Shown here: positions 42,251-64,000 of the stretch, one piece after another
Layout: each line of letters opens with the position of its first letter
How positions within the stretch are numbered: position 1 is the first letter of the stretch
From: an uncultured virus (IMG/VR IMGVR_UViG_3300020214_001677)
Lineage: Duplodnaviria > Heunggongvirae > Uroviricota > Caudoviricetes
Reading direction: 5' to 3' (one strand)
DNA length: 64,000 nt
IMG/VR virus record: IMGVR_UViG_3300020214_001677
Made by a program: the position numbers and the translations under genes
Notes under the pieces: generated by a model
Databases searched by the model: none
Told to the model about the DNA's origin: nothing
Seen by the model: only the letters and a program-made list of their open reading frames with translations

Positions 42251-42323
42251 CTGGCGAGGCAGGGCTCGAACCTGCGACCCAGGGATTAACAGTCCCTTGC
42301 TCTGCCAACTGAGCTACTCGCCA
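42251..42323 (-). tRNA. tRNA-Asn(GTT)
   Basis: TGGCGAG/CTCGCCA, AGGGA-CT-GTT-AA-TCCCT, GGTTCGAGCC. Confidence 0.92.
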
Positions 42324-46567: not shown

Positions 46568-47021
46568 TGGTTCATTTTTCGTACGTGTTACAATCAAAGG
46601 TGTTGATTCACTCGCCAGATATGTTACAATCTCATCAGCTTTGATTCATTTCAGTGAAGTGTTACAAATCTCGCTCGGTGATTCATTCGGTCGTGATGTT
46701 GCAAATCGACTGCATTGATTCATTTCTACCTAATGATACATGTTTCGATGTGCGATTCATTCAGATGGTTTGCTACGAATTCATCCTGATGATTCATTCC
46801 CAGTAATTGTTACAAATCAATGACTATAATTCATTCGTGCATCATGTTCAAAATCGTTGTTAGTGATTCATTCGTCGATATTGTTATAAATCTAGTTCGT
46901 TGATTCATTCGCTTTACATGTTACCATTAAATGTTTGTGATTCATTCCTCAGACATGATACTAATCCCAAATGATGATTCATTCATGGTCCTTGTTACAA
47001 ATTGAAATCAATGATTCACTC
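46568..47021 (-). ncRNA. TIGR-like dual-repeat guide-RNA array: 12 units, 37-nt period
   Basis: 13 copies of repeat 1 (+ strand tgattcattc consensus at 46568, 46604, 46642, 46679, 46716, 46753, 46790, 46827, 46864, 46901, 46938, 46975, 47012) alternate with 12 copies of repeat 2 (tgttacaaatc consensus), separated by unique spacers of about 8-9 nt. Confidence 0.85.
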
Positions 47022-47059
47022 TGGTGAACGGCACTCTCTTCAGGCTACGGTTAAAAATA

Positions 47060-47632: not shown

Positions 47633-48559
47633 TTATTTGTCCAAAATGATGTATCCGGAAGAAACACCGTCCACTGCTTGATGATAATTCGGCACTTCGA
47701 TCATATGAGAATGACCGCCATGCTGAATGACATAAGGTCGGGGTGCGCGTACGGGAGTACCCTGAAGGTTAGTGTGGTAATCTTCGTACCACACCGTATG
47801 AAAATGAGACAGAAAGATCTTGGCAGCAAAGCGACGTGCCTGACCATCTATCTGACCGTCAGGTAAATAACCTTCCTGCAGTCTGCGACGGGTAGGATTG
47901 TTTTTCTTCCATTGTTTCTGCTCCAAGATTGACTTGGCTCTTTCGGAATATGTTCCGGATTCGTTCAACTGTACACGACGTGCCTTGTCCTGCAGATACA
48001 ACTTGCCATAAAAGCACTGGTCGCGACCAGAGAACTTCATAAAACTCTGTCCAATTTTCCAAACGAGAGTCTTTAGATCTGCGTTATAAGGGCGCTTTTC
48101 GCCCTTCTGCCAAACAACCGTGGGATCCATTCCAGCAAAACGCCAAATGCTACCAGCAGTATGGGCCTTGGAAATGTCAATGTTGGACAACAATCCAGCG
48201 GTGATTACCGGACCTATGCCGTACTGGGAAAGTGCCCATCGTCCGGCCAAGTACTTGCCACTGAAGTGCTTGAATGGATCAACCAACGACTGCTCCATGT
48301 ACTTCATGTTGATGGCCATGTGTTCGTTCATTTGATTCGGCTTTTCGCGTTTGGCCAATTCTCTGGACTGGGCTGCAATCGCAATGCGTGCATCCTGCAG
48401 TCGATAATAGGCCTTGACCAATTCCCGAACAGTGTGAGGATCTTCGGGATAAGTCATCTTGCGAACGTCCTTCACGAAATTTCTCCACAAGGGAACGTTG
48501 ATCTCCAAATCAGAACCAATTTCATCTTGCTGCATTTGAATCTCTGTATCTTTATTCAT
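47633..48559 (-). CDS. Nop/IS110-type RNA-binding protein lacking a nuclease domain (TasA-like)
   Basis: Coiled coil (YYRLQDARIA), GIGPVITAGLL, IWRFAGMDP, YNADLK, ARRFAAKIFL; no RuvC/DEDD N-terminus and no catalytic Ser loop; lies upstream of the dual-repeat array. Confidence 0.8.
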   Translation of the reverse strand: MNKDTEIQMQQDEIGSDLEINVPLWRNFVKDVRKMTYPEDPHTVRELVKAYYRLQDARIAIAAQSRELAKREKPNQMNEHMAINMKYMEQSLVDPFKHFSGKYLAGRWALSQYGIGPVITAGLLSNIDISKAHTAGSIWRFAGMDPTVVWQKGEKRPYNADLKTLVWKIGQSFMKFSGRDQCFYGKLYLQDKARRVQLNESGTYSERAKSILEQKQWKKNNPTRRRLQEGYLPDGQIDGQARRFAAKIFLSHFHTVWYEDYHTNLQGTPVRAPRPYVIQHGGHSHMIEVPNYHQAVDGVSSGYIILDK

Positions 48560-48591: not shown

Positions 48592-51177
48592 TTAATATCT
48601 TGATACGCTGGAAGTTCTGGTGAACTTGATCGTGGGTGTGAACACAACTTCCGTGTCCTGACGATGTGCTTCTTGGAAAGACATCGGGTCGTGATAGACG
48701 TGCTTGTCGTACTGCCATTTGTCGCTCTTGAACGTGTTTACGTCCACATCGCCGTCCGCTTTCGGGGTGAAAAAGACGGTGCTTGCAATACCGTAAAACT
48801 GTAATGCAGACTCCAGATAAGGATAAACGAATCGATTCATTACGATCTGATCCGTAACCTTACCTGCAGATGTGGGAACGTTCAAAGAAACCGAATACAT
48901 GGACAACACAAAATCATGCTTGTCTTCTATACGCTGGAAAGAATTAATGATATTAACAATCTCAGTGTACATTGACTCCCATGATCCTCTGACTATGTTG
49001 CCAGTTGATTGCGTGGTTTCAGAAATGTTGACCTGATAGATCTTGCTACGAAAGTCCTTTACCGTGGAAAGTGCCTGAAAGTAGAGGCGTTGGGCGAGAT
49101 CATGTACGATCTGCGGTGGCTTAGCGTTTAGCTGCGCCCAATTGCGTACTTTCTGGCAATACTCCGAATACTTTTGTGAACAAAGTAGATTTATTTGTGT
49201 TATCTTACCGTCGTGCAGTACGATCTCTTCTCCGTCCTTCAGATAACGTTTGAAACCTCGTTTCAGCCAAACATTCGTGTCTATTGGTTGTGCGGAATCA
49301 ATGATCTCTCTGACGATCTTCTTGGCTTCCTCGTCAATCGCAAGTACATCCTCTGCAAAGTCAGGATTGATGCACTTGTCAATTGCCTTTTCCATAGAAC
49401 AAAGTTGGACTGGACGATGTTTGTGAATGATCAAAGAATGAACCATTGCGGCATTGACGTAACCTCCGACATTGCCGCCAGTCATGGCGACTTTGATATC
49501 TGAAATGACGTCGTCTTGTGTATACAAGCCGGTTTTCTTGGACTTCTTGACGTGTTCGGATGGAAATCCAGTGTAACGTACTTCTTTATCACGAATACAT
49601 TCACTGAGTCGTTTTGGCCATCCGCGCCCGGAAACGGTGGGGAACTTGATCGGAGTGCCGTCTGCTTTGTGCCAAGTGGGTGACCATTGGCCCTCTACAT
49701 ACCGAAAGATCGAGTACTCACCGATACCGTTTGGTGAACGGCATACGATGACGACTTTCTGTCCGTCAAATTTCCCGCCTTCCATGGTGCGGTAGAACAG
49801 CTTGAAATAATCGTCCTCGTCGTGGCCGCCGTGCGACTCGTACATCTCGAGCCAATCAGCGTCGTTGACGACGTGAACGCCTATCTCGTTGATACGAATG
49901 ATTTGACCCTGTTCCACCTGTACGCTCAGCTCATAGCCAGCCATATGTGCCAACGACTCTGGTATCACCTGTTCATAAACAGAACAAGGAATAGGAACCC
50001 GAGACTGATATGGTTTTGCGTGGCTGGTTGCCAATGTTTCAAAGAGCCAAGGTGAATCGGTTATCTTCATTCCAGAGGATACCCATCGATAACCAACGTA
50101 CGACATTCTAGAATTGGCTTCTTCGTCTTCTGCGTCTGCGAGGTTACGGAACTGTCGTTTATAGATTTCACGCCAGTTCGTAAGCAGACGACAGTTGATT
50201 GCATCATCAAACATCTTCTTGTACTCTTCGTCCAGCCAGAATTCCATGTCTGACTGGCGAAACAGATTGGGAAGGTTGATGAGTGTTTGGTCGTCGGTGA
50301 TTACTCGTTCGTGGGAACCTTGCGGCTCTGCAATGAATTTGAATCCGTTTTCATACTTAATTTCTGACTTGATGTTGTCCTGGGAAGTGATGACATCAAC
50401 TCCCTTAGGTAGGTTGTCAGAAACTATGCAATTACCCTTGAGGAAACCCTTATCGAAAACAATGCGGGCATTGTATACTCTCTGCTTCAAGAGATTGCGT
50501 ACCAGCTTCTTGCGAATCCGCCAATCGTAATAATACTCTTTGGTGTCGGTGGTCTTTGAGGGCTCGTATACCGGCAAGTTGGCTACAGCACGCTGTATCA
50601 ACTTTGAAGATACGACAAAACCACCGTCCAACAAGCGGGCAAGAACTTTTGGATTCTTGAAATCTACGCCAGGATAGTCTTGTGACAAAGACGCTAACAT
50701 TTCGGGATCATTGAAATTGTATTCTGAATATTGAGTAGAATCTACGATCATTACGTTCAACTCGTCCTTGGCGAACGTTGCGTTCAACAGTGCAGGACGG
50801 TGGAAAGTCTTGAGTCGTTTTGCGGTCTTGTCTCCGGCGTAAACTTCGTAACCAAGACGTTTGAATGCTTCTAGCCAACCTGGACACCCCTCGATGATAA
50901 CGAAGGCCATTTTGTCCTTGTCCACGATTGCATAAGAAATCTGTGGATGGCGAACGATGGCTTCTGCTATCCGTAATTCGGATGGTGTCTGAGGTATTGG
51001 TAGAGTGGCCATTCTAAACGACACAGGTTTTTCCGTAGAATGCTGCTCAGAAAGTGCCTGTACGGCTTGACGCAGAAAGCCTGTGTCATAGAAGCCGAAC
51101 TGGTAATCGTTCATGCTACGCAAAGGACCGTATATTTCTGCGTTGAGCCGAACTCTTGGACGATAGGACAATGTCAT
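48592..51177 (-). CDS. Single-subunit two-barrel (YonO/RdRP-like) RNA polymerase homolog A
   Basis: LDGGFVVS, ARIVFDKGFLKG, GGHDEDDY, VCRSPNG, NVGGYVN, KAID. Confidence 0.65.
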   Translation of the reverse strand: MTLSYRPRVRLNAEIYGPLRSMNDYQFGFYDTGFLRQAVQALSEQHSTEKPVSFRMATLPIPQTPSELRIAEAIVRHPQISYAIVDKDKMAFVIIEGCPGWLEAFKRLGYEVYAGDKTAKRLKTFHRPALLNATFAKDELNVMIVDSTQYSEYNFNDPEMLASLSQDYPGVDFKNPKVLARLLDGGFVVSSKLIQRAVANLPVYEPSKTTDTKEYYYDWRIRKKLVRNLLKQRVYNARIVFDKGFLKGNCIVSDNLPKGVDVITSQDNIKSEIKYENGFKFIAEPQGSHERVITDDQTLINLPNLFRQSDMEFWLDEEYKKMFDDAINCRLLTNWREIYKRQFRNLADAEDEEANSRMSYVGYRWVSSGMKITDSPWLFETLATSHAKPYQSRVPIPCSVYEQVIPESLAHMAGYELSVQVEQGQIIRINEIGVHVVNDADWLEMYESHGGHDEDDYFKLFYRTMEGGKFDGQKVVIVCRSPNGIGEYSIFRYVEGQWSPTWHKADGTPIKFPTVSGRGWPKRLSECIRDKEVRYTGFPSEHVKKSKKTGLYTQDDVISDIKVAMTGGNVGGYVNAAMVHSLIIHKHRPVQLCSMEKAIDKCINPDFAEDVLAIDEEAKKIVREIIDSAQPIDTNVWLKRGFKRYLKDGEEIVLHDGKITQINLLCSQKYSEYCQKVRNWAQLNAKPPQIVHDLAQRLYFQALSTVKDFRSKIYQVNISETTQSTGNIVRGSWESMYTEIVNIINSFQRIEDKHDFVLSMYSVSLNVPTSAGKVTDQIVMNRFVYPYLESALQFYGIASTVFFTPKADGDVDVNTFKSDKWQYDKHVYHDPMSFQEAHRQDTEVVFTPTIKFTRTSSVSRY

Positions 51178-51224
51178 ATAATCTCCATTTTCTCCATAGT
51201 TGCGTTGGTATGGCTGTAAGTATA

Positions 51225-51638
51225 CTATCTATTGTTTATTTTGTTTGCTACCCATCTCAATCCCCAGACGGGAAAGGTAATTACTCTAATGACAGTGTAA
51301 AGCACCTTGAATAAATCCTTGAATGCTTGAACCCATTTTTCGCGCATGTGTGACAACATGTTGCCGCCATAACGCTCTGCTTGTGGTGAATCGTAGTTCC
51401 AGTGCAAGAATGCATAACCTGGAATTGACATGGCAGTTGATATCATGGCTGCACCCATTACAATGAGACCCGCCGCTCCGAACATGATACCAAGGATCCA
51501 TGACAATACGAGTGATATAAGCATATTGAACCACTTCAGCCGATAGGCATTCTGTCTCCACCACTTGATTCTTGCGGCGAACATGAGCTCGACAATGGAT
51601 GAAGCTATGGCTAGCAATATCATCATAGAAAGCAACAT
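51225..51638 (-). CDS. Multi-TM membrane protein
   Basis: Three or four hydrophobic helices. Confidence 0.6.
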   Translation of the reverse strand: MLLSMMILLAIASSIVELMFAARIKWWRQNAYRLKWFNMLISLVLSWILGIMFGAAGLIVMGAAMISTAMSIPGYAFLHWNYDSPQAERYGGNMLSHMREKWVQAFKDLFKVLYTVIRVITFPVWGLRWVANKINNR

Positions 51639-51709
51639 ACAACTACCCTTTCTTTAGTTTGATGCTGGCTGTATTTTGGATTAAAACTGGGGAAATAGTA
51701 TCCCCTATT

Positions 51710-52357
51710 TTAGTCAGATATCGATACCTTTTTTGGACACTTGGAAATATCCCATGTACAGGGATTCCATGGTGACCATCCTGATATATCATAAAGAAGT
51801 TTACCGGCTTTAAGATTGATCAATGGATCCAACAAAGGCTCTTGTGTGCAGACAGACATTTTATTGCATACTGCTGCCCACTTGTTGCGCTTAGTGTTGT
51901 AATTGACTCCGTTGATCTGTAACAAGCCTGTGTCTGAACGGTGGTTCCATTCAGAAACTCTGGTTATGACACAATTAGAATTTACGACATCACCGCCACG
52001 ACGGTTGGGACAACCGCCTGACTCGCGTAAGATTATCTGGCCTAACTTATTCCATGTGTGTTCTGGCCAACCTGCTTGAGCAGCAAGGTATGGTAACCAA
52101 GAAATATCACCATGTTTAAATGTTAGTCCGTAATGCTGAACGCTATTTATATTAGAACCAATATCTTTAATTTCATTTAATGAATAAAGATTGTTATGTT
52201 GTTGTACGGTGTGATGTGTTTGTACCACAAGGGTACTAGGGGGCTCCTTAACTTGCTTTGTTTCTTCATGTAACTGATTGACTACAAACAGCCCAGTAAA
52301 GTTAACAAAGGTAAGTAAGGTTACTACAAAATGTTTTATCGCGTTTTGTACTAGCAT
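51710..52357 (-). CDS. Lytic transglycosylase (SLT/lysozyme-like) with N-terminal TM/signal
   Basis: IILRESGG (catalytic Glu), DTGLLQIN, NLKAG, GWSPW; ATG at 52357 after AAGGAG. Confidence 0.8.
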   Translation of the reverse strand: MLVQNAIKHFVVTLLTFVNFTGLFVVNQLHEETKQVKEPPSTLVVQTHHTVQQHNNLYSLNEIKDIGSNINSVQHYGLTFKHGDISWLPYLAAQAGWPEHTWNKLGQIILRESGGCPNRRGGDVVNSNCVITRVSEWNHRSDTGLLQINGVNYNTKRNKWAAVCNKMSVCTQEPLLDPLINLKAGKLLYDISGWSPWNPCTWDISKCPKKVSISD

Positions 52358-52409
52358 GCGTTTTCGCTCCTTATCGTCTAGTTTGACAATCAATTGACAA
52401 TTGTCATTA

Positions 52410-52546
52410 GTATAACGCAGGTTGCGAACCCGAAGATGTGCGGACAAAAACGAAATGCCCGTCACAGATGGCAGGTTGCCTATCTCCGACTTCACAGTAT
52501 TGCTCTGTTATGTTAGGGATCTTTTCCCTGCCCGCTGGAAACGGGC
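52410..52546 (-). ncRNA. Candidate structured 5' leader of the transglycosylase gene
   Basis: Consecutive stems GCCCG/CGGGC, AGGGA/TCCCT, AGAT/ATCT, GGGCA/TGTCC, GGTT/AACC. Confidence 0.45.
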
Positions 52547-52584
52547 ATTATATCCTTATATAGTAACCTTATCTAATAATAAAG

Positions 52585-52791
52585 TTAAGAATTAGCAGAA
52601 GTTGAAGCTTGAACTATGGTGTAAGTACCGTAGGATACAAGCTGAAATCTGTTTTGATTGGCTCTGATATAGTTCAACAAAGTTGGAAGGCTCACTCCGA
52701 TTTGTTCGCACATCTCTTTTGTTGAAAAAGTATTGTTGACGTGTGTGTTGATGAATTGTTCAATTTGTGGTGTTTTTGATGGCTTAGCCAT
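52585..52791 (-). CDS. Small HTH protein
   Basis: STKEMCEQIGVSLPTLLNYI. Confidence 0.65.
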   Translation of the reverse strand: MAKPSKTPQIEQFINTHVNNTFSTKEMCEQIGVSLPTLLNYIRANQNRFQLVSYGTYTIVQASTSANS

Positions 52792-52957
52792 TATGGTACT
52801 CTCCGTTTAAGGTGTATAAAGGTGTATAAATATTATAGTGTAGAAAGGTAAAATATGCAAGTTTTGTTGAAATTTATTTTATTTGGATTACAACATATTA
52901 ATATATATATAGTATGGTTGAGAACAAACCTATATAAATTTGACCCATTAACAATTT

Positions 52958-53416
52958 CTAGTATTTAGACTTGGCAGGCAAGTAAAAAGGCATGTTAGTC
53001 CATAGGACTTGAGTTGGTTCATCTTGGTAGTAACGCTCAATGATTATGTCTTCTTGGCCGTCAAAATAATTGCAAGTATGGACCGAACCAAGGTACAAAA
53101 ACTTAGAGTTTGAGTTGTCTACGATCCATGTAATTCTTTTGTCGTTACCCAACGAACGGGCTTTTTTAATCTCTAAAGATCCTGAAGTGGATTTATTCAG
53201 ATTCTGAGTAATCCATAATAAGTTATGACCCTGTTCGTTTGGCAATACGACGGATATGTAACCATCATGAGCTGGTACAAAAGGCGTGTACTTCTGGCCG
53301 CCCCGCTCAATGAAAGATTCTCTATTCCATAATGCATGATGAACTCTAAGAATAGAAACTATCTTAGGGTCATCTGTCATTGGTAGGCGTTTAGAATCCA
53401 TGAGCTGCGTTGACAT
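52958..53416 (-). CDS. Hypothetical protein
   Basis: 152-aa ORF. Confidence 0.6.
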   Translation of the reverse strand: MSTQLMDSKRLPMTDDPKIVSILRVHHALWNRESFIERGGQKYTPFVPAHDGYISVVLPNEQGHNLLWITQNLNKSTSGSLEIKKARSLGNDKRITWIVDNSNSKFLYLGSVHTCNYFDGQEDIIIERYYQDEPTQVLWTNMPFYLPAKSKY

Positions 53417-53605
53417 ATGATAATGAACCTTTCTTAAGTTGGATATAGTTCTGGCGATTCACAGGGGGAGTAGGAATCGGGAACATGTTAGGATAAATGG
53501 AGGGAATCCTACAAGGTTGGTCTTCATCCACACATTTTTGTTATGTGCCCAGAAACTATACCGAATTGGCTGACGCAACAGCCGATACTTTTAGTTTCCA
53601 TTTTG

Positions 53606-53678
53606 CGCCCTGGGTAGGAGTCGAACCTACGACCTGCGGATTAGAAGTCCGTTGCTCTATCCACTGAGCTACCAGGGC
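53606..53678 (-). tRNA. tRNA-Arg(TCT)
   Basis: GCCCTGG/CCAGGGC, CT-TCT-AA loop, GGTTCGACTCC. Confidence 0.92.
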
Positions 53679-54110
53679 AGGCCGCCCGCAAAAATTTTTA
53701 TAATTTTTACGTATATGCTAATAGGGATAGAGTATATGCTTGTAGGAATATAAAGATATCCCCACTGTTCACCACTACAACCCACTGAGAGTTAATCGAA
53801 GTTGTGATCCAAGGGTATTTTTATTCTACAAGCCTTTTTGTTCCACTTCTTTTTTTTATCCTGTATGGTAACAGCACGTAGGCGTACTCCATTTTTGAAG
53901 TCTTTGCGATCCTGATCATTCCATTTGTTGGGCAATTTAGCCATAACATTACCGCCTTTGATATTGATATAGTATGTTGATAATACAAAATATAATAAAA
54001 GTATAATGGGTTCAGGCCCGAGAGAGCCTTTAATTTTACTTTTAATAACATTTTATTCTAATACTGATATTTATTTAAGTTTAATAATAAAAAGTCCTTT
54101 TAAGTAAATC

Positions 54111-54155
54111 GAGCTACGAGGTCACAATATAGGGGCATATTTAACCTCGTAGCTC
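54111..54155. terminator. 12-bp inverted repeat downstream of the HicA-like gene
   Basis: gagctacgaggt / acctcgtagctc. Confidence 0.5.
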
Positions 54156-54172
54156 TAACAAACTTTTCCTTG

Positions 54173-54403
54173 TTATTTGACTTTAAGAGTAGATTGAAGA
54201 GTTATGTTATAATATTTTTTGAAGTCACGGCGTATTGGGTGTAACGCTGATTCTGTGCCGTGAGTTGTGTATATCGGGCCCGGAATTGTGGAAGGGGGGA
54301 CAATCCGGTATGCGCCTGATTTCTTCTGTTCTACTACAAAGCCAAGTCTTCTCAGCTCCCGAAAGACTTCTTTGATGGCTTTGGATTGATGTTGCTTTGG
54401 CAT
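54173..54403 (-). CDS. HicA-like (dsRBD-fold) small protein
   Basis: KEVFRELRRLGFVVEQKKSGAYRIV...TTHGT; AAGGAG SD. Confidence 0.55.
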   Translation of the reverse strand: MPKQHQSKAIKEVFRELRRLGFVVEQKKSGAYRIVPPSTIPGPIYTTHGTESALHPIRRDFKKYYNITLQSTLKVK

Positions 54404-54666
54404 ACATTGCTCCTTGTAAGTTTGGATAATTTTGGTATTGCTTGCTGAATATACTATAGCATATATTCTTTTTTAGATGCAACACCTAAAAGAACTTTTT
54501 TCTGGGGCCCCCCGAAAAATTCGGTGACCAGAGGACTAATAAAAATAAAAATATTTATTACCGTAAAGGACCGAATTTTTTCGGTACCCAGAAGACTAAA
54601 AATATTTTTTGTTACTGCTACCCTATAGCCTTATATATACTATAGAGTAGACAGTACACATTCGTT

Positions 54667-54897
54667 CTATAGATCGTGATTGTAACCGATAAACCTGAGT
54701 CGTTTGGATTGAACCAAGTCGTCTACACATTCGTCACACACAATGCCGGCAAATTTAGAGGTATCAAACTCACTACCATAATGAGCATTGATCCTGATGT
54801 CACAGCCACCATTGAGGTTGGTGGCGTTGTTTTCCCATAGGTGCATTACTGCTTTTTCACAAATGATACATGGTGTTAATGGTGGGCGTTTTGTCAT
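54667..54897 (-). CDS. Small zinc-binding protein
   Basis: CIIC...HYGSEFD...CDEC; AAGGAG SD. Confidence 0.6.
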   Translation of the reverse strand: MTKRPPLTPCIICEKAVMHLWENNATNLNGGCDIRINAHYGSEFDTSKFAGIVCDECVDDLVQSKRLRFIGYNHDL

Positions 54898-54982
54898 TGT
54901 TTGCTCCTTTTTGAATTAGTAAAATTTTTTTTATAGGGGTTTGTGGGTGATAGTGCAAGGACACTACCACCCACTACTACCT

Positions 54983-55282
54983 TTAACGCGTCAAAGCGTC
55001 AGTGATTTCATCTACGGTTTTAGTAGCGACCACGATGGCAAATGCCGAACCAACGACATTCAACCATTGATCTCCACCAAATCCATAGGCTCCCAGAATG
55101 CTGACATCTGCTGCCCAGACCGTCAAGACGGTCAACACCGGAAACAGAACTTCAGGCTTTCCTAGGTATGGAACCTTCTGCAGGAACGGAAGATAATTGA
55201 GAATTGCATCAGTGGCAAACGCCACAGCAAAACCCAAGAACACCGCCAAGGCAATCGGGTACATAAATAGCCTACCTTTCAT
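54983..55282 (-). CDS. Three-TM holin-like membrane protein
   Basis: Three hydrophobic segments. Confidence 0.5.
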   Translation of the reverse strand: MKGRLFMYPIALAVFLGFAVAFATDAILNYLPFLQKVPYLGKPEVLFPVLTVLTVWAADVSILGAYGFGGDQWLNVVGSAFAIVVATKTVDEITDALTR

Positions 55283-55385
55283 TAGGGCTAGTATTATTTT
55301 TTATTATTATAAGTATTGGTGGTGTCCCCGCCAGATGGGCTTTTTGCTCTGATGGCAACTAACTGGCGGGAACAACACCTTCTAC

Positions 55386-56423
55386 TTAGAACGGTGCAAC
55401 CGTGGTGTCAACCTGTACTGCGACAGATGCGTTGGCTGGCTTGTTGGTCGAGTTAGACCAGACATCCAGATCCACGTTACCATTGGCAGTCACAACCGTC
55501 CAACGACCACACGGTGCGTTGGTTGCGTTGTACTTGTCTCTGGTAACTTTCTCACCATTGGCTTGCACATCAACCTGACGAGAAGCACCAGACCAGATCA
55601 CTGGGTACTGACGGCTCATGTCAAGTTCGTTCTTGATCTTGGCTTCGTGCAGTTTGACATCCGCTTGGGACATCTCGGCTGCCTTCTCCTGAATCTGCTT
55701 GGACAGGATGCTCGCTGCGGTCTTGTGTTCAATGACACGCACGAGGTTGCTGAACACCGCGTCAACGATGTCAATGAAACCCTGACCAGTGGTGGACTGC
55801 TTGCGGTCGGCTGAACCCAACTCGAAGGCAACCACTTCCAGACCCTGATTGGCTTTCATGTCATAGCAGGTGTGGAAACGCGGATTCTTGTGCAGCGTTG
55901 CCAGATCGTCAATACCACCTGCCGCCTTGAAGATTTCCACCGCGTGGGCGAAACCGTTCTGGCTGGCACCCATCTGTTGGAACATCAGTGGCATACCGTC
56001 GCTGAGGCCCTTGATCAGGTTGGTGTCGTTGAGGATCTTACGCACGTCATCAAGGCTCTTGCCCTTGGCGCTCTCAAGAATGAGGGTTTCGATCAACTCA
56101 CTCAGCGTCATTACCTGACCGCCGAGTTCGACTTCAACCTTCAACTTGACTGGCTTGAACACGCCACCAAAGACTTGGCTGATACGGGGCTCTGCGTTCT
56201 GGCGGCGGACTTCGTGGTCACGAACCGTCAGACGAGTCCAGAATGCGGACTCCAGAGTCGCATAGGTGTCAATGGCATTGCCGTTGATGGAACCCTTGAC
56301 CTTGACGCGCTTGTCCTTGATCAACTTGACGGTTGAGCTCTGGGACTTGAGCGCATCGGGGTTCTCGGTGACAACAGCGAATGTGTCGCTCTTGATACCG
56401 AACTTGTTGCTTAGTGTGGACAT
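55386..56423 (-). CDS. Hypothetical protein ending in APF, GC-rich codon usage
   Basis: 345-aa ORF; AAGGA SD. Confidence 0.75.
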   Translation of the reverse strand: MSTLSNKFGIKSDTFAVVTENPDALKSQSSTVKLIKDKRVKVKGSINGNAIDTYATLESAFWTRLTVRDHEVRRQNAEPRISQVFGGVFKPVKLKVEVELGGQVMTLSELIETLILESAKGKSLDDVRKILNDTNLIKGLSDGMPLMFQQMGASQNGFAHAVEIFKAAGGIDDLATLHKNPRFHTCYDMKANQGLEVVAFELGSADRKQSTTGQGFIDIVDAVFSNLVRVIEHKTAASILSKQIQEKAAEMSQADVKLHEAKIKNELDMSRQYPVIWSGASRQVDVQANGEKVTRDKYNATNAPCGRWTVVTANGNVDLDVWSNSTNKPANASVAVQVDTTVAPF

Positions 56424-56516
56424 AATATGTTTTTTTCCTTTGTTATTTGTTGTTTGATATGATATGATGTATTGCTGAAGGAAAGTTCACTGCTGAACGA
56501 TCCCCTATTTTGTATT

Positions 56517-56717
56517 TCAATCGCTTGATTCAGGAACGATTGGTGTGGACTTTTCGCCACCAGCCTGTTCCTTGTAACCAGCAACGAAGTCGTCTTTGGC
56601 CGTTACCAATGTTGACTTTGTCTTGCTGATCGCAGCCTTACCACCACTCTTGGTGGACTTGGCGAGGTTCTTTGTTTGGGCGGTTGTCTTGCCCAACAGT
56701 TTACCTAACTTACGCAT
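56517..56717 (-). CDS. Small Lys-rich protein
   Basis: GAGGT SD. Confidence 0.55.
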   Translation of the reverse strand: MRKLGKLLGKTTAQTKNLAKSTKSGGKAAISKTKSTLVTAKDDFVAGYKEQAGGEKSTPIVPESSD

Positions 56718-57062
56718 GACATTACCTCTTTCTTTTGTTGTTAGAATTCTTCGTATGTTCCGAATATTGCATCCATTAGTTCAGTGATTAGATCGAACAA
56801 CCAATCGAACACGCATCACCTCCCTTCAATATGACCCCTATTTTCCTAGGAATTTTTAAAACAGGAAGGCTAGTGTTATTTTTTTCTATTGTCATTAGCC
56901 TTGGCCAATCCGACTAAGGCTATGATAATAAGATTTAGAATGATTGCCACGAATATTCCCGGTAACAGCATTACGAGCTCTGCTTTCGCCGGAACTTGTA
57001 TGCTGCACCAGAAATTAGGAATGCAATCGTGGTGACGATCAAACCAATTTTAGTGATCGGTT

Positions 57063-57383
57063 TCATGAGTACAACTCCTCTTTACGAACTTCACCCAGCA
57101 TTTCGTACAAACCTGCACGATAGTTGTCCACAATGGCTTTTGCCTGTTCGAAATTCGCACAGGGCATCGTGTAGTCGAAGTGGTCTGACGAGTCACCAGT
57201 TGGTGATTGAACGGCGAACTCGATCTGGCTGAAAGAAGGGAACCTATCCAAGGTTTTGTACCACATCGCATTGAACGAAGTGATCATACCCTTGGGCATG
57301 GACTTTCCGTCTTTGCGGTAGACAAAGAACCCGTAGATACTGCTGCTATCGGTGTCGTACTGGTTTTCGTGGAATATGTACAT
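57063..57383 (-). CDS. Hypothetical protein
   Basis: 106-aa ORF. Confidence 0.6.
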   Translation of the reverse strand: MYIFHENQYDTDSSSIYGFFVYRKDGKSMPKGMITSFNAMWYKTLDRFPSFSQIEFAVQSPTGDSSDHFDYTMPCANFEQAKAIVDNYRAGLYEMLGEVRKEELYS

Positions 57384-57503
57384 TATTCACTCTCTTTCTT
57401 TTTGGCTTTGGGATTGTGTATACCGGGATTTGCTTTGCGGCGGGCAGAACGACGCTTGTTCTTTTCCTTCAAGCGTTCGGATTCCTTCCACCATTTGGTG
57501 TTT

Positions 57504-57710
57504 TCAGGGCTGGCCATACTTCATCTCCTTGTTCACATAGTGATCGTAGACGGACTGCATTTCTTCGGTCTTGAAACCATCCTTGGTCCTTTTGCTTGGA
57601 ACCTTGTCCTTGGTCACAAACAAACCGACGATGAACATTACCGAAAATGCGATGACCATCCAGATTAGTTGAGCACGCATTACTGCTTTGGTTAACTTCC
57701 ATGATGACAT
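57504..57710 (-). CDS. Small single-TM protein
   Basis: Hydrophobic helix; AGGGG SD. Confidence 0.5.
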   Translation of the reverse strand: MSSWKLTKAVMRAQLIWMVIAFSVMFIVGLFVTKDKVPSKRTKDGFKTEEMQSVYDHYVNKEMKYGQP

Positions 57711-57897
57711 TACTTTACCCCTTTGTTGTTGAATATTTTCTTAGCCCACTGCCTATCAGCATAGTGAGGATCAATTGCATCGATACGATCAAGTATCGTG
57801 TATTCAAGTTTGCTCAATTTGACGGATATGCGCCAACAAGCATTCTTTAATTTCCACATTACTGGCAATAACAAATATTTCATAATTACCCCTATTT

Positions 57898-58119
57898 TTA
57901 GTGCGATTTTGGAATACCAAGTATATCCGCCCCGTCGTCCTCAATGATGGAAACCCAAACAATGCGGCACGAATCACAAACCCAGTGTTTGCGCGTGTCA
58001 TCAATGATCAAGCGACAATCACGTACACTGCGTTCTTCAGTGAGTGTCAGTTGTTTTACTCTCATCGGAACATTGTGTATCGTGCACTCGGGCACCAAAT
58101 CTGTCCATTCTTGCGTCAT
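57898..58119 (-). CDS. Small zinc-ribbon protein
   Basis: CTIH...CDSC. Confidence 0.55.
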   Translation of the reverse strand: MTQEWTDLVPECTIHNVPMRVKQLTLTEERSVRDCRLIIDDTRKHWVCDSCRIVWVSIIEDDGADILGIPKSH

Positions 58120-58194
58120 GAAACACCCCCCTATTTTTCTAGTGTAAATTTTTAGAATTATAATCTAATAAAAAATTTTTTAAATAGCATACTA

Positions 58195-58510
58195 TTGCAC
58201 TTTGTGCCTTGGTATGCCAGCAAGGAGTTCCTGATGCTGCAATTACACCATTGATGAATTTATGGGACATCAATCTCCCATTAGATGGCAACTAATTATA
58301 AGCGCCCTATCTGCTGCTTCGAAGATATCAACAGATTCCGACATCCTTTGGGACGGGCCAGCCCAGTTCACAATAAGTTTCGTTTATCCTGTACGGAACT
58401 TCCACTAAGGGGCCGACACAGAATAAACCCGGACAATCCAACCATTCTCCGCTAACATCGGTTCTTCGCCCGATGGCATAACCCTGAAATGTGATTACGG
58501 TTGTTCAGGG
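58195..58510 (-). ncRNA. Candidate structured ncRNA of about 310 nt
   Basis: At least six stems; two contain U-G wobbles only on the minus strand; no ORF of 60 aa or more in the track. Confidence 0.55.
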
Positions 58511-58517
58511 AAACATC

Positions 58518-58724
58518 TTATACGTTATTGTCCTCCGGGATTGAGGAAGCTGCCATCACATTGAAGAGATGGAACTCTTGTTCTGCACTTTGGTACTTGT
58601 CCCACTTGGAAGAAGGTGCGTTCTCAACGATGCTGACGATTTCCGCCAACACCTGAGACCTATCTCCCCGCTTGGGAATCATTACTTCAAACGGAATTAC
58701 TGGATTCACTGATTGCTTAGGCAT
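58518..58724 (-). CDS. Hypothetical protein
   Basis: GGAGG SD before MPKQSV. Confidence 0.5.
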   Translation of the reverse strand: MPKQSVNPVIPFEVMIPKRGDRSQVLAEIVSIVENAPSSKWDKYQSAEQEFHLFNVMAASSIPEDNNV

Positions 58725-58877
58725 GATGCCCTCCATTGTTGACTTGGATACTACCCCTATTTTTTTTGTATTACCATTCAAGAACCCACACGAAAAGACA
58801 GCCCAGCCCGACGGTGAGAAGTGCGTAGCACCGCCGGACTGGGTGTCCCCAAGGAGGGTTAGCAAGAAATCATACGC

Positions 58878-59144
58878 CTAGTCCCGAAAGACTTGAAAAC
58901 CCTGCAAGGGCTGTTGTTCGATTGCCCACATTGCGTCATAGCACTGTGGATGAACACCATTGATCATGAACTCACGCTCACCTGGTGTCTTGTCAGGAAA
59001 GACATGTTGAATGAACTGACCCATTACCTGCCAAGCATTCCACTGGGCAAGAGTAATCTGGTACATACCTTCTGTCTTGCAATGAACACAGAAGTTGTGC
59101 ACGACCACCACATCATCCTCGAATTCTACTTTTGTCGCTATCAC
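58878..59144 (-). CDS. Small Cys-containing phage protein
   Basis: CVHC...EREFMINGVHPQC; GGGGAGG SD. Confidence 0.6.
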   Translation of the reverse strand: MIATKVEFEDDVVVVHNFCVHCKTEGMYQITLAQWNAWQVMGQFIQHVFPDKTPGEREFMINGVHPQCYDAMWAIEQQPLQGFQVFRD

Positions 59145-59189
59145 GGGTTTACCTCCCCATTGTCGATTTGATGACTAGACCAATTTTTT

Positions 59190-59222
59190 TGTTGGCAGGG
59201 GGGCCGAAGCCCCCCCACCAAC
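59190..59222 (-). terminator. Intrinsic terminator-like hairpin
   Basis: GGGGGC-TTCG-GCCCCC with extended flanking pairing. Confidence 0.6.
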
Positions 59223-59238
59223 ACATTCCGCCGTTCGG

Positions 59239-59751
59239 TCAGAACGGTGCGTCACTGCTCTCAGCGACCACCACTGGCCGCGTCGGCTGCGACATCCGAC
59301 TCTTCAGCGCTGCGAACGCTGCGTTGTCCATCTTCACCGCTGCTGGCCTGCTCCGCTGGTAGGTCTCAACCACGAAGTTCACGGGGTACACCGTGATTTG
59401 CGGGTGGACGCTGCCATCCTTGTAGGTCAACTCGGTGGTCTTCCCCAACACGATGTCGTCGCACAAGACGCGCAACACACCCTTCGGGTTGATTCCACCA
59501 GTCGCACTGCGAACCACTTCGTCCACATAGGACTTCAGGTTCACTGAGTGCTTGGCACCGTCCACTTCCACGGTCAACTGGTCATCTTCGTTGATTGCCC
59601 AGTTGTACGCGTTGACCTGACGGTCTTCCGCCGAAACGGCATCAAAGCCAACAGGCCCAACTAGCACCTGCCAGAATCGCTTGCCCGTCTCGGTGTTCAC
59701 TCGCTCCTGCCAATCGTTGTTGGCATAGAGCGCCTTCAGTATCTGCTTCAT
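59239..59751 (-). CDS. Beta-rich protein with ...ESSDAPF tail (possible SSB-like)
   Basis: ATG at 59751 after AAGGAG; acidic PF C-terminus. Confidence 0.6.
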   Translation of the reverse strand: MKQILKALYANNDWQERVNTETGKRFWQVLVGPVGFDAVSAEDRQVNAYNWAINEDDQLTVEVDGAKHSVNLKSYVDEVVRSATGGINPKGVLRVLCDDIVLGKTTELTYKDGSVHPQITVYPVNFVVETYQRSRPAAVKMDNAAFAALKSRMSQPTRPVVVAESSDAPF

Positions 59752-60009
59752 ATTGCTGCGGCTCCTTGACCGCTTTGCCACTTTCTTACGCAGGCAGTGA
59801 CCGCCTGAAGAGGCTCGGGAATGAGCCCCTATTTTCAGAGTCAAACCCGTTCAGCAACGCCAAACGGGAAAAGACCCCTATTTTGCGCGTTAGACCCGTA
59901 GGAAGAGTCAACACGCAACAACCCAAGCCAGCCAAGCAACCAAGAGCCTAGCCAGCCAGAGAGACCTATTTAGAATACCCATAGGTATTCACAATCAATG
60001 AAGGGTTAA

Positions 60010-62652
60010 TTACCTCAGATTAGTCAGACCTTGGATCAACAGATCCATGACCGCCGGTTGTCCTTCCTGGCCATTCTGGAAGATGATCCGGTCACTGAGA
60101 CCGTACTTGCCAGAGTTCAGGCTCGGATCCACGATGTACCGGTACAGCAGTACAGCCCACTTTTCTGGAGCTGTGTGTGAATTGATCCTGTTGTACAGGT
60201 CCGATTGAATATCGCCAATGTCCCTGCTGCGCTCGGTTTCGGCAAACATCTTGAGATACTTGCTGTTGAACCCGAGTTTACCGGCCTTGGCCATTGAGGA
60301 GTGGTACTTTGCGTCTGCACGCTTGAGGCGCACATCAAACTCCTTGAAGAGTCCACTTGCCCACTCGACATGTTCCGGCTTGACTATCGACAGTTTGTCC
60401 ATGACCAACTGACGAGTTTCAGATTCCAGACGACGACCGAATGAAACTTCAACGATCATCTTCTTGACTTGATCCAGGGTGTGCTTGTTCACATTGTCCA
60501 TACGGGTGAATTTACCTTCCACCAGAATGTCCTCAAACGCCTCCTGATCTTGTTTCTCCATGCCAATCGACAGACGTGTCTTGAACACGAACTTGTCAAC
60601 AGGAATCTGTTCGCGAATGATCTCGTTCACGATCAACTGCTGCATGTGCATCATTCCAAACTTCAGGTAGATGAAGGAATCGATGTCTGCCTCCTGTTGA
60701 TTGGTGTCAATGACATCATTGCTGTTTGCCGGCAGCCACTCAGGATAGCTCACTCCCATGATTGCAGAGTAAGCCATGATCAAGTTGGCATACGTGCCCA
60801 CGTTGGGATTCGCAAACTGTGCCCTGATCATCCGTTTGATGTTGTCTCGTGTGATCATCCTGCTGGTGTACTCCACTGAATGAGGAATTTCTCCTCGCTC
60901 AGAGGTTTCCAACAGAGTCGACATGCCGAACGGAGCAGTGTTCAAGTCGATGACCGGAACCCGCTCGTCATTACGCCTGTGCCATGGCATGGTCTCTGCA
61001 TCAAACCACTCAATGCTGTACCCACCTGGTCCGTTTGGTGAACGAATCACTACGCAGACGTCGATGGCTTCTTCCGGTGTCTCAGGCACAACCATGTTGA
61101 CTGGCAGTACCGAATCCGAATACAGCTTCTCCAGTTTCTCTCGACCATACTGGCTGCACCAGATTTTGATCCAGATGAACTTGGCTTGATCACCGTCTTG
61201 ATCCCATGTGTCATGCAACACAGCGGTATCAACGAACCTGTCGGTGGGGATTACCACACCAACATTCTCCAGATAGAAGACACAATTGCGCTTCTCTTCC
61301 GGAAGGTCCATCATCGCCATGTGCTCCAAGGCAGCATAGGTATTGACGGTTGCCATGAATGCATTGCTCATTGGCAGCCACCAACGGTTGTTGTCTCGTG
61401 CTGATTGCATCTGCATTTCTACAGAACCAATCGCCAGCCTGTTAAAGCAAGCAGAAGCAGACAGATCATTCCCTGCCTCAAGCCACCTGACAACAGCGGT
61501 CTTCCAACCAGCCACTACAGGTTCTTCGTGGTGCACACCAGCTTCGTCATGAGCAAACTTTACTTGGTGCAAGATGAAGTCCGGCACTTTGTTGTCTGCG
61601 AACGATTTGGTGATGTCATTCACCAACGATTCCGAATCCTGAACAAAGCGTTCCTCGGTGAACAACCAATCGTGATTGTGGAACGTGCTTTGCATATCCC
61701 ACATCGCCGTGTGAATGTTCTCATGAATGAACGCCGTTGCCAGATAGTTGTTGCCATCTGAATGGAACTCCGGTTTGATTGCACTGCTGTGGAAGATGAC
61801 ATCGTGAGACATCACCCTGTCAGGCCTGCACAAACCCAGACCCTTTACGAGTCCGTATGGAGTCCTCAGTCGGAAGATGAACCGGTCAATCTTGTTGCCC
61901 ATGATCATTGCAATCATACGGCGCTTTTCATGACCTTCTTCCATCTTGTAGCACATCTCCCGCAAGAAGCTCTGACTGACAATGATTGGTCCGTCGTACG
62001 GATTGCAGTTATTGCCATCAGGGCTCATCTCCAGGGTGACTTCTTCACGAGCAGCAGGCCAGTTACCCGGTCCGTGATCATGTTCAGCTTCTGGGATTTC
62101 ATTGCTGGGGTCCACCAACATCAAGCAGCTCAGTTCGTCGAACTTACCAGACTTGTACATCTGGCATGAACGACCAACTTCTTGCAGTCGCTTTGGTGTC
62201 TTCTTTGCATCCAGTGCAATCATGTCCATTGCCTCGAGGCTGAAGATCTCACGATCCATTCCATCGATGTAAAGGAAGAATGCATAGGTCGCATTTGCCC
62301 AAGCAAAAGTGGATCCATCAACCAACAGGTCGATATTGGTCCTCTTCAACTTGATTTCATGCTTTAGGTCACTGATTGAGATTGAACCAAGTCGGAATGT
62401 GAATCCTCTTTTGTTCAACTTGCTCAACGCAGGGTAGATCCAGGTTCCATTGTGGATTTCCATCAGGTAGTTGGAAATTGTCCTACCTTGTGGAGTCCGT
62501 GTCTGGACTTGGATTGGCTCTTTGGTATCCCTGAACAGTTCCAGAGCAGACTTTTCGTGTGCCCTGGGATTGTTGGTCAGGATTCGCCACTTTCCTGACA
62601 GGAATGCGATGATCGGGATTTCGCCCTTCACCGCTTGGTTGATTGCGCTCAT
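60010..62652 (-). CDS. Single-subunit two-barrel (YonO/RdRP-like) RNA polymerase homolog B
   Basis: YDGPIIVS, FRLRTPYGLVKG, WDQDGDQ (DxDGD), VIRSPNG, NVGTYAN, DVID. Confidence 0.75.
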   Translation of the reverse strand: MSAINQAVKGEIPIIAFLSGKWRILTNNPRAHEKSALELFRDTKEPIQVQTRTPQGRTISNYLMEIHNGTWIYPALSKLNKRGFTFRLGSISISDLKHEIKLKRTNIDLLVDGSTFAWANATYAFFLYIDGMDREIFSLEAMDMIALDAKKTPKRLQEVGRSCQMYKSGKFDELSCLMLVDPSNEIPEAEHDHGPGNWPAAREEVTLEMSPDGNNCNPYDGPIIVSQSFLREMCYKMEEGHEKRRMIAMIMGNKIDRFIFRLRTPYGLVKGLGLCRPDRVMSHDVIFHSSAIKPEFHSDGNNYLATAFIHENIHTAMWDMQSTFHNHDWLFTEERFVQDSESLVNDITKSFADNKVPDFILHQVKFAHDEAGVHHEEPVVAGWKTAVVRWLEAGNDLSASACFNRLAIGSVEMQMQSARDNNRWWLPMSNAFMATVNTYAALEHMAMMDLPEEKRNCVFYLENVGVVIPTDRFVDTAVLHDTWDQDGDQAKFIWIKIWCSQYGREKLEKLYSDSVLPVNMVVPETPEEAIDVCVVIRSPNGPGGYSIEWFDAETMPWHRRNDERVPVIDLNTAPFGMSTLLETSERGEIPHSVEYTSRMITRDNIKRMIRAQFANPNVGTYANLIMAYSAIMGVSYPEWLPANSNDVIDTNQQEADIDSFIYLKFGMMHMQQLIVNEIIREQIPVDKFVFKTRLSIGMEKQDQEAFEDILVEGKFTRMDNVNKHTLDQVKKMIVEVSFGRRLESETRQLVMDKLSIVKPEHVEWASGLFKEFDVRLKRADAKYHSSMAKAGKLGFNSKYLKMFAETERSRDIGDIQSDLYNRINSHTAPEKWAVLLYRYIVDPSLNSGKYGLSDRIIFQNGQEGQPAVMDLLIQGLTNLR

Positions 62653-62699: not shown

Positions 62700-62739
62700 C
62701 TAAGTACTAGTCATAAAGTAAAAGGGGCCGAAGCCCCTT
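62700..62739 (-). terminator. Terminator GGGGC-TTCG-GCCCC-TTTT followed by a conserved 19-mer
   Basis: Hairpin plus U tract; ctaagtactagtcataaag repeated at 63193. Confidence 0.7.
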
Positions 62740-62800
62740 CTACTGTCGGCTGAACCCGACTCTTGTTTTGCAGGGGTGACTTCTTTCCCCTGCTAGGTTA

Positions 62801-63112
62801 TTACTTCAAGCTCTCGATGACCTGATAGGTCTTCTCGGGCTGTCCGTCCACGTACTTGACTTTCGTCGTTCCGAGTCGGGTCTTTGGCGTTTTGGCAATG
62901 AATGCCTCGGCGCCTTCCTTGTTCGGGAACACATGGACCTTGTAGGTCTTGGGCTCCTGTGGCTTGGGAGTCTTGACGACTTTGGTCGTTGACCCCTTGG
63001 TCTGCACCTGGGTGTCTTCAGCGAAGACTCCTTTGGTGCTGTGGCAGAGGCGAACCTCTTCCACGCTCGAGTGCGCATGCCCGCAGGCAACGCACTTGAT
63101 TTGCTTGTTCAT
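62801..63112 (-). CDS. Small protein with N-terminal CxxC-H zinc knuckle
   Basis: CVACGHAHSSVEEVRLC; AAGGAGG SD. Confidence 0.7.
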   Translation of the reverse strand: MNKQIKCVACGHAHSSVEEVRLCHSTKGVFAEDTQVQTKGSTTKVVKTPKPQEPKTYKVHVFPNKEGAEAFIAKTPKTRLGTTKVKYVDGQPEKTYQVIESLK

Positions 63113-63192
63113 GTCATCCTCCTTGTATGGATGTACATTGCGTCATTTTTGATTTGGGAAACGACACTTCAACCCTGACTGATACTTGAAGT

Positions 63193-63237
63193 CTAAGTAC
63201 TAGTCATAAAGAAAAAGGGGCCCTTTTGGACCCCTTC
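63193..63237 (-). terminator. Terminator hairpin followed by the same 19-mer
   Basis: AAGGGGTCC-AAAA-GGGCCCCTTTTT. Confidence 0.7.
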
Positions 63238-63257
63238 TTCTTTTCCTGCTTGCCTTG

Positions 63258-63695
63258 TTATTCGTAGATGTGACCGAAGTCGATCTCGCATTGATCAAGG
63301 CTTTCTTTTTCCTTGGTCTTCTTCGAGTTCATCAGTTCACCAATGATTTTTCTGCCTTCTGCCATTGACAGATAGGGCATGCCAGCCAAATGGCCAGCCA
63401 TCTTGTGTTCGATACGTGACCATTGCGCGGTAATGCCTCCGAAAGCGGACTCCCTGGCAATAACTTGGTCCACCAACATCAGTTTCCTGATGAGTGCAAC
63501 TTGCGCGATGCTCATTATCTGAACTTGTCCAGTTCCATCGCACCGAAAGCACTTGTGGTGCAAGCCTTCCGGATCATCGATGGTTGGCCACAATCCAGTG
63601 CCAGCACATGGCTCGCACTTGATGGTCAGTCCTTCAACGTAACCCTTTTCTATTGCCTTCTGTACTTGTTCATCAAACCGCTTACTCTTACTCAT
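63258..63695 (-). CDS. Protein with DnaJ-type zinc finger
   Basis: CEPCAGTG and CFRCDGTG; GGGAGG SD. Confidence 0.7.
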   Translation of the reverse strand: MSKSKRFDEQVQKAIEKGYVEGLTIKCEPCAGTGLWPTIDDPEGLHHKCFRCDGTGQVQIMSIAQVALIRKLMLVDQVIARESAFGGITAQWSRIEHKMAGHLAGMPYLSMAEGRKIIGELMNSKKTKEKESLDQCEIDFGHIYE

Positions 63696-64000
63696 GGGTT
63701 TTTCCTCCCCATTGTGATTTTGGTAGCCGGATGGCTAGCCATAAAAAATAAAGACTAGTAATATAGTTAAATTTACTAGCCATATATAGATCCCTTATTA
63801 CCAACCAATTAGCTGGTTAAAGCTTCTTGGTGGTGTCAACGATAAATGCAGGCTTGCCAACCTCCTTGGAGTAGGCAAAGCACTGAGCAGTACCGCGGGT
63901 AGTCGGGTTATACACCCAGAGAATGTCCGCATGGTCAACCATCCACTCATTGCGATGGAAGTTGGCATGACGGCCATCAGGTCCATATATGCCATCGCAT

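Follow-up and report, generated by a model that had tools for sequence, protein, structure and literature searches.

Predicted single-chain RNA polymerases of an uncultured phage with a probably rewired catalytic barrel and a possible place in a transcription cascade

Introduction

In cell-type RNA polymerases, the barrel that bears the R-x-P and DxDxD motifs is regarded as an unchanging core common to all. In a 64,000-nucleotide stretch of DNA from an uncultured virus of the Caudoviricetes (IMG/VR record IMGVR_UViG_3300020214_001677; the whole stretch is called the window below), two genes, P0001 and P0002, encode proteins in which such motifs can be recognised in the reverse order. The question raised by this locus is whether these proteins are polymerases and, if they are, how their catalytic barrel is built and what a phage might do with several of them. 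Models and comparisons point to both genes encoding DNA-dependent RNA polymerases, and we put the probability of the reading as a whole, including a rewired barrel and a transcription cascade, at roughly three in four. A naturally widespread form of the core (217 clusters at 50% identity), its strands swapped and its metal loop shortened, would reveal which of the core's features are required. Phages with more than one polymerase have been described before (PMC10770324); new here are the family-wide count of motif order, the reading of the strand order, the three-copy pattern and a second block of DNA motifs.

The Asp motif precedes R-x-P throughout the family

The initial annotation, made from the window sequence, described two paralogous open reading frames (ORFs) of 861 and 880 amino acids that share a series of motifs in one order, with R-x-P some 20-50 residues behind the Asp motif. 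All of the motifs were located in that order: DG-x3-[VI]S (residue 184 in P0001, 220 in P0002), R-x8-KG (238 and 261), the Asp motif (DEDD at 453, DQDGD at 484), V-x-RSPNG-x-G-x-YSI (478 and 535), NVG-x-Y-x-N (569 and 617) and a final AID (598) or VID (647). The measured distance from the Asp motif to R-S-P is 27 residues in P0001 and 53 in P0002. As judged from their sequences, the two proteins are distant paralogues with a similarity beyond chance (BLASTP E 2e-9), and comparison of their family profiles gave a probability of 99.65 and an E-value of 5e-25 over 582 collinear columns.

Searches yielded 254 relatives of P0001 and 56 of P0002, itself included. A search with the P0002-family profile found 217 representatives at 50% identity, the best 150 of which made up, with P0001 and P0002, a set of 152 proteins; the 129 of at least 600 amino acids were kept, the 23 shorter ones being left out, and counts out of 129 refer to this set. 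Throughout it the Asp motif lies ahead of an invariant R-x-P, by 22-67 residues (129/129). The same order is kept in 56 of 56 P0002 relatives and in 121 of the 121 P0001 relatives listed, which include the best 120 of the 254.

The known enzymes compared here have the opposite order. In QDE-1, R962-x-P964 precedes D1007 (PMC9508822). YonO has RSP at 492 and DNDGD at 535, the canonical order, and among 121 proteins of its family 116 have an Asp motif, with RSP or RTP ahead of it in 91 and behind it in none (0/116 reversed). Both gp64 and gp96 of phage P23-45 have R-x-P 38 residues ahead of DxDGD and none after it. The sole candidate for a canonical R-x-P upstream of the Asp motif was R393-V-P395 of P0001, 60 residues ahead; it was rejected, as it lies ahead of the first barrel strand, has no P0002 counterpart and falls in a column whose Arg is unconserved among the 129. 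A published survey filtered its candidates with [RK]xPx{20,100}DxDxD (PMC10770324, Supplementary Data 4), that is, on R-x-P before Asp, so that the family could not be found by that route: the filter is passed at the catalytic motif by 2 of the 129 members, both of them D-x-D-D-D by chance.

Eight residues are common to two-barrel polymerases, namely an Asp and two basic residues in barrel B, and an Arg, a Pro and three Asp in barrel A (PMC2919709). With equivalence assigned by motif context, their counterparts (P0002 numbering) are D220 (126/129), R261 (121/129), K270 (128/129) and D484, D486, D488, R537 and P539 (each 129/129). On this evidence the family carries the eight-residue signature of the two-barrel RNA polymerase superfamily. 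The DxDxD spacing of the Asp triad found in that superfamily is not kept by most members: 121 of the 129, P0001 among them, have D-x-D-D, and D-x-D-G-D, the form of P0002, occurs in the other 8.

Database searches returned little. Pfam, PHROGs and PDB sequence searches with P0001, P0002 and three profiles gave nothing significant; PF05183 (cellular RNA-dependent RNA polymerase) had no Pfam match to P0001, P0002 or any of 20 diverse relatives; the YonO family phrog_4291 reached an E-value of 0.29, which is not significant; and tblastn of P0001, P0002 and P0267 against 50,697 GenBank phage records found no match. Two close matches were present in BFVD, both uncharacterised proteins from uncultured phages, and language-model feature similarity was 0.94-0.95 to clusters with 15-57% PF05183. 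A literature search, which took in few subscription papers and not the aligned sequences of the 23 families in PMC10770324 (Supplementary Data 3), found none on the polymerase family or on a reordered polymerase barrel, and no such reordered polymerase is described in the accessible parts of PMC7824862 and PMC11258233. These results support the earlier proposal of a distinct phage RNA polymerase family, so far unnamed, to which P0001 and P0002 would both belong; it is a variant of the single-chain two-barrel polymerases. Some members carry additional domains, with NADAR fusions in P0124, P0125 and P0277 and a DUF4326 fusion in P0242.

Both proteins are predicted to have the single-chain two-barrel fold

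AlphaFold2 models, built with 85 and 88 sequences, had a predicted local distance difference test score (pLDDT) of 91 and a predicted template modelling score (pTM) of 0.90 for P0002, and 92 and 0.90 for P0001. The best Foldseek match was QDE-1 for P0001 (E 4e-9) and RDR2 for P0002 (E 6e-7), the polymerases of P23-45 and P74-26 were also among the top matches, and all of the matches listed at E<=0.001 are two-barrel polymerases. Alignment to RDR2 with VIA gave Z 12.0 for P0002 (root mean square deviation (rmsd) 6.5, 594 aligned residues) and Z 11.9 for P0001 (rmsd 7.5, 570 aligned), and the P23-45 enzymes gp64 and gp96 gave Z 8.8 and 7.3. In a wide structural search of 48,161 chains, only RDR2, QDE-1 and P74-26 gp62 reached a Z of at least 8. 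Stand-alone double-psi barrels align with residues about 165-308 of P0002 (Z about 4.4), which form the first barrel. The second barrel has, by prediction, six strands with altered connections; no stand-alone double-psi barrel was listed against it, an absence that is uninformative.

QDE-1 and RDR2 (PF05183; PDB 2J7N, 7Y7P-7Y7T, 7W82, 7W84) are the best structural matches (VIA Z 9-12, 540-615 aligned). They likewise carry the two barrels on a single chain, arranged in matching order, and D709, R738, K743, R962, P964 and the Asp triad have counterparts in the phage proteins. The difference is that their R-x-P stands 45 residues before the Asp loop, whereas in the phage family it stands after; the family is, in addition, mostly D-x-D-D, shares about 10% identity with them, lacks a PF05183 match and is made up of phage genes. 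YonO (Bacillus phage SPbeta, 839 amino acids) is a single chain of similar size with the same R-S-P-x4-E hairpin and the same strand-helix start of the catalytic barrel, but it has the canonical order of R-x-P and Asp, and its profile comparison with the phage family is not significant (probability 0.6). The single-chain, two-barrel gp66 of phi14:2, a crAss-like phage (PDB 6VR4), is a weak match (VIA Z 4.8-5.9) and differs in its 2,166 residues in the structure and in being packaged in the virion. The models predict for both proteins the single-chain two-barrel polymerase fold of the QDE-1/YonO/P23-45 architecture, and the earlier claim of single-subunit two-barrel polymerases is supported by confident models that match QDE-1/RDR2 and the P23-45 enzymes.

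The catalytic barrel is probably rewired by an internal swap

The canonical barrel runs β1, β2, β3 (with R-x-P), β4, β5, helix, Asp loop, β6; β1-β5 and β2-β4 pair in parallel, and β2-β5, β3-β4, β3-β6 and β1-β6 are antiparallel. In the P0001 model, strands a (399-406), b (425-429) and c (434-437) are followed by a helix (439-448) and the Asp loop, and then by strands d (457-466), e (474-480, ending in R480) and f (488-493). The P0002 model repeats this series, except that extra residues are inserted between d and e. Three strands, the Asp loop, two strands, R-x-P and one strand is no rotation of 1-2-3-4-5-6, and the circularly permuted barrel put forward in the initial annotation is not retained. 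A rotation of the whole barrel is rejected because four strands and the helix would be needed between the two motifs, for which 22 residues are too few.

Read as 1-2-5-6-3-4, strands a-f need only two new hairpins, both joining existing neighbours, and R-x-P and the Asp loop stay at the same end. Taking the predicted strands together with covariation, the REARRANGEMENT of the catalytic barrel is very probably an internal swap, in which the β3-β4 hairpin has moved behind β6. In this arrangement β2 would be joined to β5 by a short hairpin, and the β3-β4 hairpin with R-x-P would follow β6, so that the Arg-Pro gate would still lie beside the Asp loop. The order could have arisen by tandem duplication of β3-β6 followed by two deletions. 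It is very probable that the barrel keeps its shape though rewired, and one psi crossover would have been lost.

Covariation was calculated from 346 sequences (effective number 160) and compared with 12 column-shuffled controls, which do not correct for relatedness. The four top-scoring strand pairs agree with the prediction, e-f, d-e and a-d being antiparallel and a-c parallel. The e-f and d-e pairs, at 5.8, exceed every all-pairs maximum of the 12 controls (3.3-5.5), and these hairpins are the least surprising pairs because they are also neighbours in sequence. The strongest covarying residue pair, 408-439, makes the ends of a and c meet, as they would if the two strands ran parallel. The second strongest, G450-E487, which is more telling than the two hairpins, is G/E in 114 of the 129 proteins; the 11 sequences with Asp at 450, spread over several tree clades, all lack Glu at 487. 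This coupling would set the loop that follows R-x-P next to the Asp loop, and a G/E to D/G swap offers a direct test of which features the core needs.

Related genomes carry a third copy in the tail module

Genome-wide statements on the phage, of about 210 kb, are based on G002, a near-identical relative whose 209,701-base record has terminal repeats, is 93-98% identical over most of the window and has genes for a terminase, portal, major head protein, tail sheath, baseplate and DNA polymerase. A third member of the family lies at 64095-65945 in G002 (family hidden Markov model (HMM) E 1.7e-9), in the tail module after the tail sheath and putative tape-measure genes. A third copy was matched in 17 of 17 related records, which had been chosen for carrying a P0001- or P0002-type gene, and G-[GT]-F-D-L-D-D followed by R-x-P was found in 20 of 20 loci of this copy. 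Its frames have 1,247-2,073 codons in 11 of the 17 records and are shorter in six, G002 included; in G002 61624-66528 on the minus strand (1624-6528 of L018), four successive frames make up the tail-module polymerase gene, which may be truly split or may have been broken by assembly errors.

Two early copies are present in 10 of the 17 records. Six of the other seven have a single gene within about 10 kb of the contig end on the partner's side, and in G008 the second early copy is absent from the 119.6 kb scanned. All nine records that are at least 96% complete have three family members. The two early genes vary in type: the P0002 slot of G009, G011, G013, G015 and G016 is filled by a D-x-D-D protein of another clade, and in G010 both early copies belong to the P0001 clade. 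In this 268-kb record the P0001-clade genes lie at 1579-3930 and 210279-212621, with 16-18 copies of the word TATATCTTTAAAT before the second.

Paralogous polymerases in one genome, one of them associated with the tail, are the pattern of P23-45, and by gene content and position the present phages appear to share it. P23-45 has a single-chain pair, the non-virion gp64 and the virion gp96, the latter fused to the tape measure protein, and the two read separate DNA words (PMC10770324). It differs in having the canonical order, two enzymes rather than three and no profile match to the present family, and the tail copy of G002 is a separate gene beside putative tape-measure genes, in a phage with a tail sheath.

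Two blocks of DNA words are consistent with a transcription cascade

The word TTTATG[AG]CTAG (motif 1) has 15 copies in G002, all within the 12 kb that end at the P0002 gene, and none in the other 407 kb, counting both strands. Most of these copies stand behind a hairpin and a T-run; in the window, the two nearest P0002 sit behind a G+C hairpin, the last about 55 nucleotides before the P0002 start. Motif 2, AAAATAGGGG, has 8 copies in G002 between the two polymerase genes and none elsewhere. Every one of the 7 genomes with a complete interval between the genes has repeats there of a related word, A-rich with a final G. The word likewise recurs downstream at 11 of the 15 P0002-type loci, and of the four loci without it three offer less than 1.5 kb of sequence. 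The variants of motif 2 group with the clade of the P0002-slot protein. G008, without a P0002-slot gene in its 119.6 kb, has ten motif-1-like copies and motif-2-like words at background counts.

In P23-45, one word is recognised by the tail-linked enzyme, whose transcription takes in the gene for a second enzyme with a different word of its own (PMC10770324). By analogy, the tail-module paralogue would be injected and would read motif 1, transcribing the block whose last gene is that of P0002; P0002 would read motif 2 and switch on the block ending with the P0001 gene; and P0001 would transcribe later genes. Such a virion, early and later polymerase cascade, like that of P23-45 with one step added, is slightly favoured by this comparison. 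The earlier idea that the genes were duplicated for successive stages of transcription thereby gains indirect support from the two motif blocks. Three small enzymes with candidate promoter words of 10-11 bases would make a phage relay testable without culturing the phage, and the enzymes are candidates for orthogonal transcription tools.

Several observations count against the cascade. Motif 1 is evident upstream in 7 of the 15 P0002-type loci and not in the other 8, and it is not evident in G004 and G009. That the motif-1 word might follow the tail paralogue was considered and failed in G019, which has a G002-like tail protein (50% against 29-38%) yet a motif-1 word of the G011/G016 type. A third word enriched after P0001 was sought and none was found. 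A sigma region-4 protein is present in 4 of 5 genomes, so that the host enzyme may be what transcribes the late genes; none of the 5 gave a sigma region 2. The loci lacking motif 1, the G019 word, the missing third word and the sigma region-4 protein suit the leading alternative, in which the same rewired polymerases work without a three-step cascade. The blocks would be read by an enzyme other than the one proposed (for example, the virion copy might read both, or the host enzyme might do so with help from a phage factor), and P0001 would serve, for example, in middle-gene or tRNA transcription; the WhiB gene in the window points the same way. We regard this as a serious alternative that is nonetheless unlikely, given the confinement of motif 2 to the interval between the two genes, the grouping of its variants by P0002-slot clade, and its lack of enrichment in G008.

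Scans for sigma-70 promoters and terminators gave counts at the chance level (32 against 34, and 22 against 16), and among RNA runs none was listed as a carrier. The sigma region-4 match of G002 is at 5176-5310, within a 168-codon frame. The words TTACTAT and TACTATAT lie just upstream of many structural genes on the minus strand of G002 (2.8-110 kb and 197-208 kb), where they are a candidate late promoter; TTACTAT falls between genes at 16 of its 31 sites on the minus strand and at 4 of 22 on the plus strand.

A shortened metal-binding loop is the family norm

The four-residue D-x-D-D motif is the norm in this family, the loop of most members being one residue shorter than in DxDGD. The three Asp probably still bind Mg2+ despite the shorter loop, and we infer the activity of the D-x-D-D enzymes from their invariance alone. 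QDE-1 requires all three Asp and is inactive once the third is lost (PMC9508822), which leaves the D-x-D-D geometry unproven and tells against an active family. A FastTree tree, rooted at its midpoint without an outgroup and lacking 8 of the 11 tail-module sequences because their coverage was low, splits the DxDGD proteins between two clades (support 1.0 and 0.999) that lie separately among lineages with D-x-D-D. The simplest reading is that DxDGD was regained twice by insertion, the root not being established. A direct test is offered by comparing D-x-D-D with DxDGD in the paralogues of one genome. The fullest version of the argument is an active polymerase family with a rewired barrel and a D-x-D-D metal loop, in which DxDGD was regained twice and of which one phage lineage deploys three members, one injected and two early, each reading its own DNA word and switching on the next; taken all together this is tentative, and we would give it somewhat less than even odds.

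The shortened motif could also be explained if the D-x-D-D members, P0001 included, were primases or replication-associated polymerases making RNA primers, for example at an array of 37-bp repeats that lies 1.6 kb from P0001. Fusions to a PIF1-like helicase in P0224 and P0277, members of different clades, would fit. On the other hand, the tail-module copy and most P0002-slot proteins of other phages have D-x-D-D too, the genome has its own DNA polymerase, and the array stands upstream of the P0001-type gene in other phages, so that its place is not fixed. A primase role is accordingly improbable.

Other topologies of the catalytic barrel

Several results weigh against the predicted fold and the swap. 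The structural matches are distant (TM 0.35-0.46 to QDE-1/RDR2, VIA rmsd 5-7.5 Å), and no sequence similarity to YonO, gp64 or gp96 could be shown, whether over the whole length or by segment; the family HMM has no significant match to any of the three. Only two of the six predicted strand pairs clearly exceed the controls: a-d (4.5) and a-c (3.8) score above the controls of the same pair and do not surpass the all-pairs maxima, and b-c and b-f (2.5 and 2.4) are at noise level, ranking 10 and 11 of 21. These two unsupported pairs, the YonO segment comparison and the failure of any stand-alone double-psi barrel to match the second barrel cleanly could mean that there was no rewiring, the R-S-P hairpin being of independent origin and the barrel of another topology or merely double-psi-like. 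In the segment-wise hhalign comparison, however, where the family did no better against the YonO alignment than shuffled columns, the first barrel failed as well, which means that the comparison lacked power, and a swapped barrel is expected to escape a sequential aligner. Since R-S-P-x4-E is the identical pattern in YonO (RSPHLFRE) and here (RSPNGIGE), the whole-chain structural matches cover the R-S-P region and G450 and E487 are coupled, we hold an independent origin to be improbable and prefer the internal swap.

A true circular permutation with the halves of the barrel swapped would also set the Asp motif before R-x-P, and hhalign did place strand a and the helix on β5-α2 of YonO (not significant) and a-c scores nearly as well antiparallel (3.5) as parallel (3.8), but it is very improbable, as β6, β1, β2, the helix and β3 would have to fit between motifs that many members separate by 22-24 residues, the models show two strands there, and the 408-439 pair fits a parallel a-c.

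Features and surroundings of the polymerase genes in the window

Table 1. Features of the two polymerase genes and of the associated DNA words, in window coordinates
Feature	Position	Strand	Basis or remark
P0001 gene; 861-amino-acid predicted single-chain two-barrel polymerase, D-x-D-D type	48592..51177	(-)	ORF, predicted structure
P0001 catalytic barrel, residues 399-493; six predicted strands, order β1-β2-β5-(helix, Asp loop)-β6-β3-β4	49699..49983	(-)	DSSP of model, covariation; strand naming inferred
R480-S-P482, displaced Pro-gate motif of P0001	49732..49740	(-)	invariant 129/129
D453-E-D455-D456, shortened metal-binding motif of P0001	49810..49821	(-)	three Asp invariant 129/129
Motif 2, AAAATAGGGG; eight copies near 59883, 59834, 58762, 58136, 57897, 56843, 56510 and 51710	51702..59884	(-)	candidate promoter for P0002
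P0002 gene; 880-amino-acid predicted single-chain two-barrel polymerase, DxDGD type	60010..62652	(-)	ORF, predicted structure
R537-S-P539, displaced Pro-gate motif of P0002	61036..61044	(-)	sequence motif
D484-Q-D486-G-D488, metal-binding motif of P0002	61189..61203	(-)	sequence motif
Motif 1, T-run + TATG[AG]CTAG; last three copies starting 63743, 63208 and 62715	62707..63743	(-)	candidate phage promoter

A scan of 70 ORFs identified the window as phage DNA with WhiB, proteasome-subunit, ThiF and JAB domains. The WhiB gene, at 42314-42640, leads us to infer an actinobacterial host. Seven tRNA genes (Gly, Met, Val, Lys, Asn, Leu and Arg) lie within 12559-53678. The array near P0001, at 46602-47030 between two ORFs, has about 12 units with a 37-bp period and GATTCATTC and TGTTACAAAT cores, and looks like a replication origin or protein-binding array; its word AATGAATCA recurs, in 5-21 copies, close to the P0001-type genes in other phages. 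Directly after P0001, a 308-amino-acid ORF (47633-48559) matches phrog_4285 (transposase, E 2e-35). Genes for a proteasome subunit, an AAA ATPase, ThiF and JAB-domain proteins at 17100-17729 and 27127-31645 suggest a ubiquitin-like module, which we take to be perhaps of the PRTRC type. A 1162-amino-acid lectin-domain protein with a G+C-rich interior (54% against 37%) is encoded at 3581-7069, and it is partly replaced in G002.

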